Shown in pieces: positions 1,171-4,494 of a stretch of DNA of 4,494 nucleotides. The stretch is from a virus (lineage: Duplodnaviria; Heunggongvirae; Uroviricota; Caudoviricetes): the IMG/VR virus record IMGVR_UViG_2698536450_000011; one strand, given 5' to 3'. The first letter of the stretch is position 1. Each line of letters begins with the position of its first letter. The translations under genes were made by a program, and so were the position numbers. Under the pieces are notes generated by a model, which had not been told where the DNA came from, ran no database searches, and worked only from the letters and a program-made list of their open reading frames with translations.

Positions 1171-1503
1171 ATGAAAATGAAAAGAAATCTTCCGTTAATT
1201 ATTTTGTTGTCTTCTCTGGTTATGGGCTGTACGCAACATAAAACAGATATGCCCCGACAGTTGGTTAAGGCATTACCACAATATCCGGCCTATGCAGCGG
1301 CAAATTATATAAAGGGACGGGTTGATGTGAGGTTTGATATTGGTGCTGATGGTACTGTCACCCGAATTGAGTTTATTCGTTCAGAGCCGCACCATCTGTT
1401 TGATGAGCAGGTTGTAAAGGCGATGGCAAAATGGCGATTTGAGAAGGACAGGCCGTGTAAAGGCGTGAAGAAAACGTTTATCTTTAGTCCTTCTGCACCC
1501 TGA
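1171..1503 (+). CDS. lipoprotein with TonB C-terminal-like domain (prophage moron candidate)
   Basis: N-terminus MKMKRNLPLIILLSSLVMGC is a lipoprotein signal peptide (lipobox-like LVMG-C; Thr at +2, which would favour outer-membrane sorting). The mature part, LPQYPAYAAANYIKGRVDVRFDIGADGTVTRIEFIRSEPHHLFDEQVVKAMAKWRFEK, matches the TonB C-terminal domain signature (YP..A......G.V.V.F.I..DG.V..I.......F....V.A...WRF) as I know it from E. coli TonB. The gene is visibly AT-richer than its neighbours. Start ambiguous: GTG 1162, ATG 1171 or ATG 1177 (GGGGA at 1166-1170 fits best as SD for 1177). TGA at 1501-1503. Confidence 0.75.
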   Translation: MKMKRNLPLIILLSSLVMGCTQHKTDMPRQLVKALPQYPAYAAANYIKGRVDVRFDIGADGTVTRIEFIRSEPHHLFDEQVVKAMAKWRFEKDRPCKGVKKTFIFSPSAP

Positions 1504-1634: not shown

Positions 1635-1835
1635 TCATTTCTCGTTATTTGTCATGCTGGCCGGGCGCAGATGCGTTGCATCTGTTGCCAGCCTTCTCCT
1701 GCAGGCTTCAATAACCCACGCTGAAAAGTTACCGGACCCTTTATGCTCAAGGGCGATGTTGATCTGTTCAATCATGTGATTGGGGAAACGGATATTGCGG
1801 GTTGTGGTTCTGCGGGTACGGTTTTTCGATGACAT
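1635..1835 (-). CDS. small ribbon-helix-helix (Arc/CopG/MetJ-like) DNA-binding protein, 66 aa
   Basis: Minus-strand ORF. Start preferred at the internal ATG (complement of 1833-1835), which is preceded by a strong SD, AAGGA, in gtAAAGGAaataaatATG; the track's longer version begins at a GTG at 1895. Translation MSSKNRTRRTTTRNIRFPNHMIEQINIALEHKGSGNFSAWVIEACRRRLATDATHLRPASMTNNEK has the RHH pattern: basic N-tail, beta-strand (RNIRFP), helix A, G-x-S/N turn, helix B; compare Arc NLRWPREVLDLVRKVAEENGRSVNSEIYQRVMESF. Oriented opposite to all the other genes. Confidence 0.65.
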   Translation of the reverse strand: MSSKNRTRRTTTRNIRFPNHMIEQINIALEHKGSGNFSAWVIEACRRRLATDATHLRPASMTNNEK

Positions 1836-1876: not shown

Positions 1877-2242
1877 ATGGCTGAGCTTCGTACACTCCAG
1901 AGCAGAATCAAAACACTGAATACCCGACGGGTGAATATTCTGAAGGGTGAACAGCGTCGTGTCAGTGGCAGTGCACGTGTTTCCCTCAAGCGTCATATCT
2001 GGCTCAGGGACGCCGGGCAGTGCCGTCTCTGTGGTCGTGTGGTTGACCTCTGTGACAGTGAACTCGATCACCGAATTGCACTTCAGTTCGGTGGTGGTAA
2101 TGAGGAGACGAATCTCTGGACGCTCTGTACCGAATGCCATCGACAAAAGTCTGCTCGTGAAGCGGCGAGTGATATGCCGGACCCGACGCTGCCGGAGGTG
2201 TCCGGAGGTAGTGGCAGAGAGGACGACATCATCGGACTGTAA
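1877..2242 (+). CDS. HNH endonuclease (phage packaging-associated, HK97 gp74-like)
   Basis: 121 aa. Contains CRLCGRVVDLCDSELDHRIALQFGGGNEETNLWTLCTECHRQK: C-x2-C ... C-x2-C zinc-binding pairs with the His (DH), Asn (NLW) and His (CH) of the HNH motif. SD GGGGA at 1865-1869, 7 nt before ATG 1877. Lies immediately upstream of the putative cos region and terminase genes, the typical position of packaging-associated HNH genes in HK97-like phages. Confidence 0.9.
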   Translation: MAELRTLQSRIKTLNTRRVNILKGEQRRVSGSARVSLKRHIWLRDAGQCRLCGRVVDLCDSELDHRIALQFGGGNEETNLWTLCTECHRQKSAREAASDMPDPTLPEVSGGSGREDDIIGL

Positions 2243-2532
2243 CCCGACCCCGGGGGGGTATCATCCGGCGTAAAAAACGATCGCTTTGGACACCGCGCCC
2301 CCTCTCACGCAGAGAAAAAATTCCTGTTTCAGGGCAGTTAACATGTTAACTGGCTGCCCGGGCATTTTTGCGGTTTTTATCTTTATTATTCAGTTTGTTG
2401 TGCGAAAAAAATGTTAACTGGCTTTTTCAGCAAATGTTAACCAGGCAGCAGTTAACATTTGCGGCATGAGACGCCGGGAAAAATGGGCTGAACCATACCC
2501 GGCTGAGTGCGTTCTGGACCCGGGAGGAGGCT
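2243..2532. other. putative cos / terminase-recognition region (non-coding interval between HNH and terS)
   Basis: 290 bp with no credible ORF, between the HNH gene and terS. The proximal part is GC-rich, with CCCCGGGGGGG at 2248-2258. The distal part is AT-rich, with several A- and T-tracts and a cluster of GTTAACAT-type repeats. Position is analogous to cos in HK97-like and lambda-like genomes. The exact cosN nick sites cannot be determined from sequence alone. Confidence 0.4.
2335..2462. repeat. cluster of five copies of a ~12-bp motif (ATGTTAACTGGC-like) in both orientations, including an 18-bp perfect palindrome and a 12-bp-arm inverted repeat
   Basis: Read directly. 18-bp perfect palindrome CAGTTAACATGTTAACTG at 2335-2352. 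Exact 13-bp direct repeat ATGTTAACTGGCT at 2343-2355 and 2411-2423. Inverted repeat GCAAATGTTAAC (2430-2441) / GTTAACATTTGC (2451-2462) with a 9-bp spacer. Variant copy ATGTTAACCAGGC at 2434-2446. Confidence 0.85.
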
Positions 2533-3096
2533 GTGCTGACAACGCAAAAACGAAAATTTGCGCTGGCGCTCATGTCCGGGAAAAACAAAACAGCGTCAGC
2601 CATTGCCGCCGGTTATTCGGCGAAGACAGCCAGGGTTAAAGGCTTGCAGCTGGCAAAAGATCCGGAGGTGCTCGCGTTTATAGCCCGTAAACAGTGCGAG
2701 ACGGTGGAGGTGGATGAGGTTCCTGTTTACCGGCAGAAAAAATCAGAGCAGGAGGATAAACCCCGTCGCCGTGAGGCGGCTGCAATACCACAGCCGGACG
2801 AAACAAATCCGGAGATGCCACCGTCCGCGGTGATGTCTCCTGGTATTGAATATATGGAGGATGGTCTTCCCGATCCGGTGAAAGCCATGGGGCGGATCCT
2901 GGTGGAAAACCTCTGCATTGATCCGAAACTGGCACTGGATGCGGCCTGGCGTCTGGCGCAGTTCACGCACCATAAAAAAGGGGATACCGGGAAAAAATCG
3001 GCAAAAGGTGATGCCGCGAAAAAAGCGGCTAACCGTTTTGCGGTGCCACCGCCACCCCGACTGGTGGTGAATAACGATAATGAGGGCAACGGATGA
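2533..3096 (+). CDS. terS: terminase small subunit (TerS)
   Basis: 187 aa. N-terminal region KRKFALALMSGKNKTASAIAAGYSAKTARVKGLQLAKDPEVLAFIARKQ matches the HTH signature of phage small terminase subunits (..A...AGYS.KTA...G..LL..P.V...I). Strong SD GGGAGGAGG at 2522-2530 before GTG 2533; an alternative ATG start is at 2572. Basic Lys/Ala-rich C-terminus. The stop overlaps the terL start (ATGA at 3093-3096). Confidence 0.85.
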   Translation: MLTTQKRKFALALMSGKNKTASAIAAGYSAKTARVKGLQLAKDPEVLAFIARKQCETVEVDEVPVYRQKKSEQEDKPRRREAAAIPQPDETNPEMPPSAVMSPGIEYMEDGLPDPVKAMGRILVENLCIDPKLALDAAWRLAQFTHHKKGDTGKKSAKGDAAKKAANRFAVPPPPRLVVNNDNEGNG

Positions 3097-4494
3097 TACC
3101 TGTATGGAGCACAGCCTGCCCGGACTGGGCAGAGCGCCTGAAAAAGGGGCTGTCGATTATTCCGGATCCGATTTATCCGGACGAGGCCGCACATGCCCTG
3201 GCGATTTTTAAACAACTGCGGATTGTGGATGCACCGGGTAGCCCTACGTTCGGGGAGTCCTGTGCACCGTGGGTGTTTGACCTGGTGGCGGCCCTGTTTG
3301 GCTCCTACGATGCGCAGACCGGTGTACGCCATATCAAGGAAGTTTTTATCCTTATCCCCAAGAAAAACTCGAAGTCCACGCTGGCCGCGGGGATCATGAT
3401 GACTGCACTGTTACTGAACTGGCGGCAGGCGGCGGGTTACACGATTCTGGCCCCGACTGTGGAGGTGGCGGCCAACGCCTTCAACCCTGCCCGGGATATG
3501 GTACGACGTGACGATGATCTGGATGACCTCTGCCAGGTACAGACCCATATCCGGACCATCACCCACCGGGTGACAGACACCACCCTGAAGGTGGTGGCAG
3601 CCGATCCGAATACGGTGTCCGGTATCAAGTCCGTGGGTACGCTGATTGATGAGTTGTGGCTGTTTGGCAAGCAGTGCAAGGCGGAGGACATGTTACGTGA
3701 AGCCATCGGCGGGCTTGCCTCCCGTCCGGAAGGATTTGTGGTGTACACAACCACCCAGTCGAATGAACCGCCTGCCGGGGTGTTCAGACAGAAACTGCAG
3801 TACGCCCGGGATGTCCGTGACGGCAAAATTCATGATCCGCACTTTCTGCCGGTGATATTTGAACACCCTCCTGAAATGGTGGAAAGCGGGGCTCACCTGC
3901 TGATGGAAAACCTCGCCATGGTCAATCCTAATCTCGGCTATTCAGTGGATGAGGCCTTTCTGTACCGGGAGTACCGTAAAGCCCGGGAAGCCGGTGAAGA
4001 GACATTCCGGGGGTTCATGTCAAAACACGCCAATGTGGAAATTGGTCTTGCCCTGCGCTCTGACCGCTGGGCGGGGGCTGATTTCTGGGAAGAGCAGGGC
4101 CGTTGTATCAGCCTGGACGATATCCTGCGTCGTGCTGATGTGGTGACGGTGGGGATTGACGGCGGAGGGCTGGATGATCTGCTGGGGATGTATGTGATTG
4201 GGCGTGACCGGGAGACCCGCGAATGGCTGGGCTGGGGCCATGCCTGGGCGCATGAAACCGCGGTGGTCCGACGGAAGAGCGAGGCGTCCCGGTTTCAGGA
4301 TCTTGTTGCCTGTGGAGATATGACCATTGTCCGTCGGGTCGGGGATGACACGGCGGAAGTGGCGGAGTATGTGCGTCGTATTCATGAGGCTGAGTTACTG
4401 GATCATATCGGTATTGACCCGTCAGGTGTGGGGCAGATTCTGGATTCACTGGCGGAAGCCGGGATCCCCGATGAGAGTGTGGTGGGGATAAGCC
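3093..4494 (+). CDS. terL: terminase large subunit (TerL), 5' partial, continues beyond window end
   Basis: Hand-translated codon by codon from ATG 3093 to 4494: no in-frame stop, 467 codons. It is missing from the ORF track only because it is open-ended. Sequence MIPVWSTACPDWAERLKKGLSIIPDPIYPDEAAHALAIFKQLRIVDAPGSPTFGESCAPWVFDLVAALFG...VFILIPKKNSKSTLAAGIMMTALL...VTVGIDGGGLDDLLGMYVIGRDRE... has a Walker-A-like PKKNSKST segment and a later acidic segment (GIDGGGLDD) consistent with an ATPase followed by a nuclease domain. All track ORFs between 3193 and 4449 lie in other frames or antisense within it. Position directly after terS with start/stop overlap. Confidence 0.88.
   Translation, partial: MIPVWSTACPDWAERLKKGLSIIPDPIYPDEAAHALAIFKQLRIVDAPGSPTFGESCAPWVFDLVAALFGSYDAQTGVRHIKEVFILIPKKNSKSTLAAGIMMTALLLNWRQAAGYTILAPTVEVAANAFNPARDMVRRDDDLDDLCQVQTHIRTITHRVTDTTLKVVAADPNTVSGIKSVGTLIDELWLFGKQCKAEDMLREAIGGLASRPEGFVVYTTTQSNEPPAGVFRQKLQYARDVRDGKIHDPHFLPVIFEHPPEMVESGAHLLMENLAMVNPNLGYSVDEAFLYREYRKAREAGEETFRGFMSKHANVEIGLALRSDRWAGADFWEEQGRCISLDDILRRADVVTVGIDGGGLDDLLGMYVIGRDRETREWLGWGHAWAHETAVVRRKSEASRFQDLVACGDMTIVRRVGDDTAEVAEYVRRIHEAELLDHIGIDPSGVGQILDSLAEAGIPDESVVGIS

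Follow-up and report, generated by a model that had tools for sequence, protein, structure and literature searches.

A repeat array between the HNH and terS genes of an Escherichia coli prophage as a probable cosB-like part of its cohesive-end site

Small terminase subunits (TerS) of the Terminase_2 family, such as G1P of phage SF6, form rings with peripheral helix-turn-helix (HTH) domains. The TerS of HK97, the only HNH-type cos system known to be structurally characterised, binds a single A/T-tract site, at +15 to +29, via its central tunnel (PMC11331095). Among phages with mapped ends, Lys8385Vzw was found by PhageTerm to be a cos phage whose cohesive ends are 3' and whose cos sequence is CGCCCCCCCT, the paper giving this 10-nt cos and not repeats (PMC7946995), while the Acinetobacter phage fEg-Aba01 has an annotated 10-nt 3' cohesive end, CGCCCCCCAT, mapped by PhageTerm and confirmed on a gel (PMC7354433). 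The published phage-inducible chromosomal islands (PICIs) of E. coli carry a lambda-type cosN with a divergent cosB plus Rpp (PMC6092414). The DNA analysed here is a stretch of 4,494 nucleotides from the IMG/VR virus record IMGVR_UViG_2698536450_000011, hereafter the window, which covers the part of a lambdoid E. coli prophage where the lysis region ends and the packaging region begins, and which is identified as the HNH-terS-terL packaging region of long-tailed lambdoid or Shiga-toxin (Stx) prophages. The non-coding gap of 290 bp between the HNH gene and terS (2243-2532) contains a dense array of short repeats (2335-2462). Judged by comparison with related loci, this array is likely to be the cosB-like recognition part of the cohesive-end site (cos) in an HK97-style, HNH-dependent cos packaging system.

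The position of the cut is given by homology to mapped ends. Lys8385Vzw, which was sequenced from induced particles, has a TerS 94% identical to that of the window and a cos region that is about 97% identical; its record starts with CTCACGCAGAGAAAAAATT, equivalent to window 2304, and ends with ...GGACACCGCCCCCCCT, equivalent to window 2303, CTCACGCAG being the opening letters of the record. In fEg-Aba01, whose TerS N-terminal domain is 51% identical to that of the window, the end is found at the position homologous to the window cos (left end CGCACGCACAAAAAAAATTCCC), and one IMG/VR contig (L075) independently begins at window 2303. The ends of these two phages place the cosN core GGACACCGCGCCCCCT at 2288-2303 on the plus strand, with a predicted 10-nt 3' cohesive end CGCGCCCCCT at 2294-2303 and a top-strand cut after 2303, and thereby place the array at +32 to +159 on the terS side, counting 2304 as +1. 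By this homology-based placement, the array is in the position of a cosB, between cosN and terS. The predicted left end of the virion DNA, CTCACGCAGAGAAAAAATT (2304-2322, plus strand), contains an A-tract at +11 to +18 and is nearly invariant in distant relatives as well as in phages and satellites. Located 41-52 nt to the left of the cut is a conserved cos element, the G-run box GGGGGGGTATCA (2252-2263, plus strand), which keeps a fixed 27-bp spacing to the next block in phages and satellites although the spacer sequence differs, and which also occurs in HK97 and in Acinetobacter, Burkholderia and enterobacterial relatives. This box is possibly a cosQ-like element or a site positioning TerL or the HNH nuclease. 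A G-run with (T)ATCA behind it, about 41-52 nt to the left of the cut, is common to HNH-type cos sites with different TerS families (HK97, L008 880-895; L152 248-262). At least one position within the 10-nt end is polymorphic among E. coli prophages, position 2297 being G in the window and C in Lys8385Vzw, and co-resident prophages may therefore have slightly different cohesive ends.

Five copies of the motif ATGTTAAC are present in the window, all within 2337-2458 (at 2337 and 2451 on the minus strand and at 2343, 2411 and 2434 on the plus strand), compared to a mean of 0.09 in dinucleotide shuffles, none of 200 of which reached five; the hexamer GTTAAC is found six times in the window, with 0.59 expected. 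The original prediction for this stretch had described the array by its symmetries, and all of its repeat coordinates proved correct on re-examination: the perfect 18-bp palindrome CAGTTAACATGTTAACTG at 2335-2352, the exact 13-bp direct repeat ATGTTAACTGGCT at 2343-2355 and 2411-2423, and the inverted repeat with 12-bp arms and a 9-bp spacer, formed by GCAAATGTTAAC (2430-2441) and GTTAACATTTGC (2451-2462). The number of five copies also stands, while the strictly alternating orientation ascribed to them does not, as the actual order is - + + + -. The longer motif then proposed, ATGTTAACTGGC, is not upheld by comparison with relatives, which delimits the constrained core to (A)ATGTTAAC, 8-10 bp, and the 'TGGC' flank at copy 3 varies in relatives.

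The proximal site of the array (CAGTTAACATGTTAACTG, 2335-2352, assigned to neither strand) consists of two inverted half-sites, with hexamers at +34 and +42, and is regarded as the ancestral site. The distal sites comprise site 3, AAAAAAATGTTAAC (2405-2418, plus strand, hexamer at +110), which is invariant in 63 distinct sequences including satellites, and sites 4 and 5, the left arm GCAAATGTTAAC (2430-2441, plus strand, hexamer at +133) and the right arm GTTAACATTTGC (2451-2462, minus strand, hexamer at +148) of the inverted repeat. Between the proximal and distal sites, a T-rich spacer (2353-2404) is a candidate segment for bending or wrapping, and includes the block TTTTTATCTTTATTATTCA (2374-2392), which is conserved between phage and satellite amid diverging DNA. 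The richness in A/T-tracts noted in the original prediction is confirmed, with 61% A+T in 2304-2462 against 47% over the whole window, and the helical phasing of AA/TT in this region modestly exceeds that of shuffles (p about 0.01-0.03), as does the AA/TT periodicity of 9.5-10 bp in the spacer (p = 0.014). The T-rich block and the AA/TT phasing fit a bent or wrapped spacer. Besides the contig that starts at the mapped cos end at 2303 (L075), IMG/VR contigs break at 2333 (L020, L203) and 2406 (L176), and these two positions, each bordering a motif copy, are probably places where the assembly broke at a repeat.

An unbiased view of conservation among close E. coli relatives is given by 78 cos regions (58 distinct sequences) collected via the TerS protein only, without use of the motif, and all 78 contain exactly five copies of ATGTTAAC. 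Over 63 distinct sequences, none of the 24 positions in the distal motifs is polymorphic, compared to 51 of the 121 non-motif positions (42%) within 2304-2462 (p = 1e-5); the proximal palindrome was left out of this count as it had served as a search pattern for part of the set. The motif is likewise concentrated at cos, with 345 copies inside the cos regions of 69 homologous loci and seven in the 552 kb outside. The non-coding gap is better conserved than the surrounding genes: of 94 phage records, 91 show 95-99% identity over the non-coding region, while 82 show 90-95% over the 1.4-kb stretch that takes in the flanking genes. One locus (H122, E. coli TB354) retains the terS-proximal 55 bp only, but belongs to a defective prophage truncated by IS1 and is uninformative.

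The same block is maintained in satellites that lack a terminase. A 9.6-kb island in E. coli 042 (NZ_CP042934.2, 939.3-948.9 kb), located between cspD and clpS (L006 9313-18900), encodes an integrase, an HTH regulator, an Icd-like protein, a RepA helicase and a fusion of ClpP-protease and major capsid protein, and neither a terminase nor an HNH protein. Its cos copy (L005 2465-2675), about 300 bp from the right end of the island, is 80% identical to window 2287-2460 and is preceded by the G-run at the equal spacing of 27 bp. All five motifs and their spacing are intact, with mismatches at 0 of 38 motif positions versus 34 of 135 positions elsewhere (p = 1e-4), and the similarity between satellite and phage ends at about 2460, right after the last motif. 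A PICI (L088, IMGVR_UViG_2563366903_000013, 1-11730) has the same satellite-type cos at 10734-10907, likewise an 80%-identical copy from the G-run to 2460, and an EcCICFT073-like build with integrase, Ash, D5-type primase, SSB, lambda-E-type capsid protein and gpD. Satellite-type cos is found in about 50 of 5426 complete E. coli genomes, many of them without a helper-type copy. The capsid fusion protein of the 042 island shows no similarity to the helper-type loci, of which only partial capsid genes could be compared, and is thus not a close copy of the helper capsid. As satellites without terS, dependent on packaging by a helper, keep exactly this block, the array is best understood as a packaging signal, and their retention of it is the strongest argument for such a signal over one acting in gene expression.

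Outside E. coli, 16 relatives were found via TerS in Atlantibacter, Kluyvera, Phytobacter, Kosakonia, Enterobacter, Serratia, Citrobacter, Rouxiella, Erwinia and Pantoea, and the Salmonella phage FSL SP-016 groups with these relatives from other Enterobacterales. The G-run, cosN and the A-tract are common to all, and the gap is short. In 15 of 15 Enterobacterales relatives, a near-palindrome, GT(A/T)AACATGTTAAC, is located at +34 to +47; it shares its offset from the cut with the window palindrome and contains the start codon of terS (ATG TTA ACA). None of the 15 departs from the others in codons 1-3, while synonymous variation is seen at codons 4, 5 and 7-10. The enterobacterial relatives (L003, L131-L142) also have GT(A/T)AACAT 34 nt left of the cut, and so half-sites on both sides of cosN; at this left-side position the window has a degenerate GTAAAAAAC (2270-2278) and the satellites have nothing. 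By comparison with these short gaps, the three distal copies and the spacer (2351-2532) are interpreted as an expansion in the E. coli lineage, by which the terS start was displaced by about 190 bp. The shared flanks GCAGTTAACAT and ATGTTAACTGGCT each occur twice, which suggests that the expansion grew through local duplication. The terS start of the window, GTG CTG ACA (2533-2541), differs by three transitions from the family-wide ATG TTA ACA (L003 3101-3109) and is taken to be a decayed copy of the motif; the constraint at the DNA level on the terS start codons seems to have lapsed once the overlap with the palindrome ended.

A further 39 more distant relatives (Acinetobacter-like, other low-GC Gammaproteobacteria and Burkholderia) were obtained in a search anchored on Acinetobacter TerS; in IMG/VR, tblastn confirmed 297 relatives in this search and 539 in the one that returned the close E. 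coli set. From +34 onwards the distant relatives carry GTTAA(A/C) repeats, two to four in number and spaced by about 11-13 bp (GTTAA or GTAAA at +34/+35 in the Acinetobacter type), and TTAAC again at codons 2-4 of terS. In the 39, GTTAA/TTAAC reaches a density of 16.9 per kb within the 200 bp preceding terS, versus 2.6 per kb in the flanks. In L303 the repeats adjoin cosN although the terS start, without TTAAC, is about 100 bp further on, and L292 shows an independent expansion with two clusters about 100 bp apart. One TerS clade (L293, L295, L296, L297, L300, L147) has GTAAATAAAC at +35 and ATAAATA-type repeats but no GTTAA repeats, and its HTH reads GYSEGSA.SRGSQLA.N compared to GYSEK[ST]A..QGSKLAK elsewhere. 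The pattern is suggestive of covariation between HTH and motif, and may represent a switch in recognition specificity. In the Burkholderia-type loci, TTA makes up 6% of the codons for Leu and is nevertheless used at codon 3 in every case; these loci are closely related to each other, and the rarity of TTA is weak evidence.

The overlap of the ancestral palindrome with the ribosome-binding site and start codon of terS in relatives would suit autoregulation, and inverted repeats could fold in RNA. The array could accordingly be imagined to regulate terS or the late operon, as an operator for TerS itself or another repressor or as a hairpin in the late transcript, and not to be a packaging signal. 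This is quite unlikely, however, as the satellites keep the whole array without an adjacent terS or HNH gene, as the repeats of L303 stay by cosN and not by the terS start, and as the repeats of the Acinetobacter type are direct, meaning that a hairpin is not conserved. Moreover, a scan for sigma-70 promoters and intrinsic terminators yielded nothing over shuffle expectation, the sole promoter-like match being made of the motif itself on the minus strand, and an Rfam scan of 2150-2650 (E <= 1) returned zero matches.

A different and rather tentative proposal, which we regard as possible but more probably wrong than right, combines the two functions. An ancestral TerS palindrome on the terS start codon, keeping codons 2-3 as TTA ACA in Gamma- and Betaproteobacteria, would couple recognition to expression, with bound TerS throttling its own synthesis; in the E. 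coli/Stx lineage, duplication of the site into a five-copy array would have uncoupled the two, moving terS by 190 bp and giving rise to a portable cos cassette captured by satellites. If true, such autoregulatory coupling would be a logic not recognised before, in a class of cos terminases that has yet to be characterised.

For the cosB-like array, the following sequence of events is envisaged. The terminase and the HNH nuclease would cut at cosN (2294-2303) to leave a 10-nt 3' overhang, whereby 2304 would become the left, first-packaged end of the virion DNA. The five (A)ATGTTAAC half-sites, two of them paired as the palindrome at +32 to +49 and the others located at +108 to +155, would most likely be bound by the HTH domains of TerS, and the T-rich spacer of about 55 bp would bend or wrap in such a way that proximal and distal sites meet on one TerS assembly, which would in turn position TerL and the HNH protein on cosN. 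The satellites would exploit the array block for packaging by the helper phage. The proposed reader, TerS, has a predicted N-terminal HTH of SF6/Terminase_2 type, with weak matches to the SF6 DNA-binding-domain structures 4zc3 and 2cmp. The binding of TerS to the repeats is inferred, and likewise the wrapping geometry, the stoichiometry and the direction of packaging. On those points that can be tested in silico, the cosB-like sites for TerS recognition put forward in the original prediction have found support: the virion ends of Lys8385Vzw map 32 bp to the left of the array and those of fEg-Aba01 at the equivalent position, the intervening DNA varies while the motifs do not, terminase-less satellites keep the block, and half-sites recur at an equal offset across TerS relatives.

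Several findings weigh against this interpretation. By analogy with HK97, the conserved A-tract (2314-2321) and not the repeats may be the primary TerS site, although the HK97 TerS is of a different family. In its full form this alternative holds that the repeats are cos elements read by the HNH protein, by TerL or by a host nucleoid protein, while TerS reads only the A-tract at +11 to +18. The use by HK97 TerS of one A/T-tract site at +15 to +29 speaks for it, as does the family-wide conservation of the homologous A-tract. Against this, the TerS of the window is not of the HK97 family but has an SF6-type HTH domain, a separate module for DNA binding; the repeats go with the TerS family in hosts as unlike as Burkholderia, Acinetobacter and E. 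coli; and the TerS clade with the altered HTH has a different repeat. Sequence-specific DNA binding is not known for HNH packaging proteins. Such another reader is unlikely. The covariation of HTH and motif is, however, essentially that of one clade and is confounded by phylogeny. The L005 and L088 copies share one origin, and the satellites thus count as a single independent case of retention. Evidence that the DNA is intrinsically bent is weak, and the consensus WATCAANNNNTTR of integration host factor (IHF) has no match within 2243-2532 with one mismatch allowed. Finally, absence of the motif from syntenic relatives, which the original prediction had named as refuting it, is partly borne out: the proximal palindrome is found in other Enterobacterales while the distal 182 bp, with the three distal copies, are missing, for instance in the viable phage FSL SP-016, and hence the distal copies are not universally required.

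This absence, together with the duplicated flanks GCAGTTAACAT and ATGTTAACTGGCT and the origin of most copies from closely related E. coli prophages, would also be expected if the distal copies had no function and were left over from local duplications or from a segment inserted here, conserved through prophage kinship only. Such a relic is very improbable, since the motif positions are invariant where 42% of the adjacent positions vary, since the satellite copy has diverged by 20% overall but at 0 of 38 motif positions and has its boundary at 2460, and since L292 has expanded independently in a like manner.

The packaging genes of the window are in accordance with this assignment. The HNH gene (1877-2242, plus strand; Pfam HNH PF01844, E = 3.7e-8) encodes a predicted HK97-type accessory nuclease of cos packaging. 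It is followed, beyond the gap, by terS (2533-3096, plus strand), which starts with GTG behind GGAGGAGG and whose product matches Pfam Terminase_2 in residues 2-57 (32.4 bits, cut-off 26.1), and by the 5' part of terL (3093-4494, plus strand; Pfam TerL_ATPase PF03354), which runs past the end of the window and whose product is 57-86% identical to the TerL of relatives. The order HNH, Terminase_2, TerL_ATPase is thus given by Pfam, and the HNH-terS-terL synteny is kept in all relatives. The 1.4 kb around the gap is 93-98% identical to long-tailed Stx-converting and related phages, among them BP-4795, 2851, 1717 and Stx1a/Stx2c phages. Of 5426 complete E. coli genomes, 1287 contain the gap, which occurs at up to seven places in one genome.

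Upstream of the packaging genes, the window contains the Rz gene (371-838), a gene for a TonB_C-domain lipoprotein (1177-1503, plus strand), which sits moron-like between the lysis and packaging genes, and a gene for a ribbon-helix-helix (RHH) protein (DUF3950, YlcI-like; 1635-1835, minus strand), divergent from the HNH gene. YlcI/YnfO genes presumably lie beside cos in other lambdoid prophages also, as in the ylcI-nohD arrangement of DLP12. Operators for this protein had been offered in the original prediction as the alternative identity of the repeats, on the grounds that RHH proteins bind repeated or palindromic half-sites and that the DUF3950 gene belongs to the same late region. The gene start at 1835 (minus strand) faces the HNH gene, however, and the array is about 500 bp away, beyond HNH. 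By tblastn, no homologue was found in the upstream flanks of the 16 palindrome-bearing relatives or in the satellites, the YlcI/YnfO protein of the 042 island is without similarity to the DUF3950 protein, and the motif is confined to cos. The RHH operator was rejected for its position and lack of co-occurrence, and has only the slightest chance of being correct.

A further rearrangement is seen in prophages at the ompW site, where the insertion sequence ISEc20 (IS110 family) abuts the G-run (L004 1546-3004, PPompW_EH1846) at about window 2255. The ompW-site prophages with ISEc20 still have cosN, the array and terS, but neither the HNH gene nor the lysis region. Having lost the HNH gene, they should be unable to cut cos without a helper HNH protein.

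The literature search retrieved no description of the array, and the 14-mer GTTAACATGTTAAC was in no paper found; nor was any experimental dissection of cos found for the class that combines an SF6-type HTH TerS with HNH and 3' cohesive ends. Terminase recognition repeats of cosB-like kind are well known, while the present version is undescribed, and the finding is useful and coherent but unsurprising to a specialist. Its interest lies in the cos region being present in about a quarter of complete E. coli genomes and serving as the packaging signal of many long-tailed Stx-converting phages. The anatomy of G-run, cosN (2294-2303), A-tract and GT(T/A)AAC repeats from +34 provides a rule for locating cos ends in prophages of this terminase class, helps to spot the terminase-less satellites that parasitise such prophages, and supports the design of cos-plasmid or transduction work on Stx phages. 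A natural comparison is also provided between an SF6-type HTH TerS that apparently uses multiple repeats, as in lambda, and the HK97 TerS with its single tunnel-exit site, both acting with HNH and 3' overhangs.

Among the known systems, the cosB of lambda (R3-I1-R2-R1, bound by gpNu1) is similar in adjoining cosN on the side of the small-terminase gene, in having several short repeats of mixed orientation over about 130 bp with a spacer between proximal and distal sites, and in being a region that satellites need or replace (PMC6092414). Lambda differs, however, in its 12-nt 5' overhang, in having no HNH protein, in the winged HTH of gpNu1, which is of an unrelated family, and in its repeat sequences, which are unrelated to those of the window; it also has the IHF site I1 between R3 and R2, whereas the window has no match to the IHF consensus. 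The cos of HK97 is similar in the HNH gene directly upstream, the 10-nt 3' overhang, terS as the next gene, the G-run about 45 nt left of the cut and the A/T-tract 11-30 nt to its right. In contrast, the TerS of HK97, which we take to be of the P27 type, reads one 15-bp site as DNA exits the central tunnel, while the TerS of the window matches Terminase_2 only in Pfam and has no HK97 match among its tblastn matches; HK97 also lacks GTTAAC-type repeats, and its terS starts at +50. The pac of SPP1/SF6 (pacL/pacR, G1P) is alike in the N-terminal HTH of TerS, which is of the same family, and in that repeated short boxes flank the cleavage site in both, the enterobacterial relatives having a further GT(A/T)AACAT box 34 nt left of the cut; SPP1/SF6 packaging is, however, headful from pac, with permuted and terminally redundant ends, and without HNH, whereas the relatives of the window have defined cohesive ends. 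The satellites finally resemble SaPIbov5 with phi12/phiSLT, P4 with P2 and EcCICFT073 with lambda/phi80, all of them terminase-less islands that carry the cos of the helper and an adjacent capsid homologue, but the 042 island and L088 differ from the published E. coli PICIs in possessing an HNH-type cos with a complete ATGTTAAC array.

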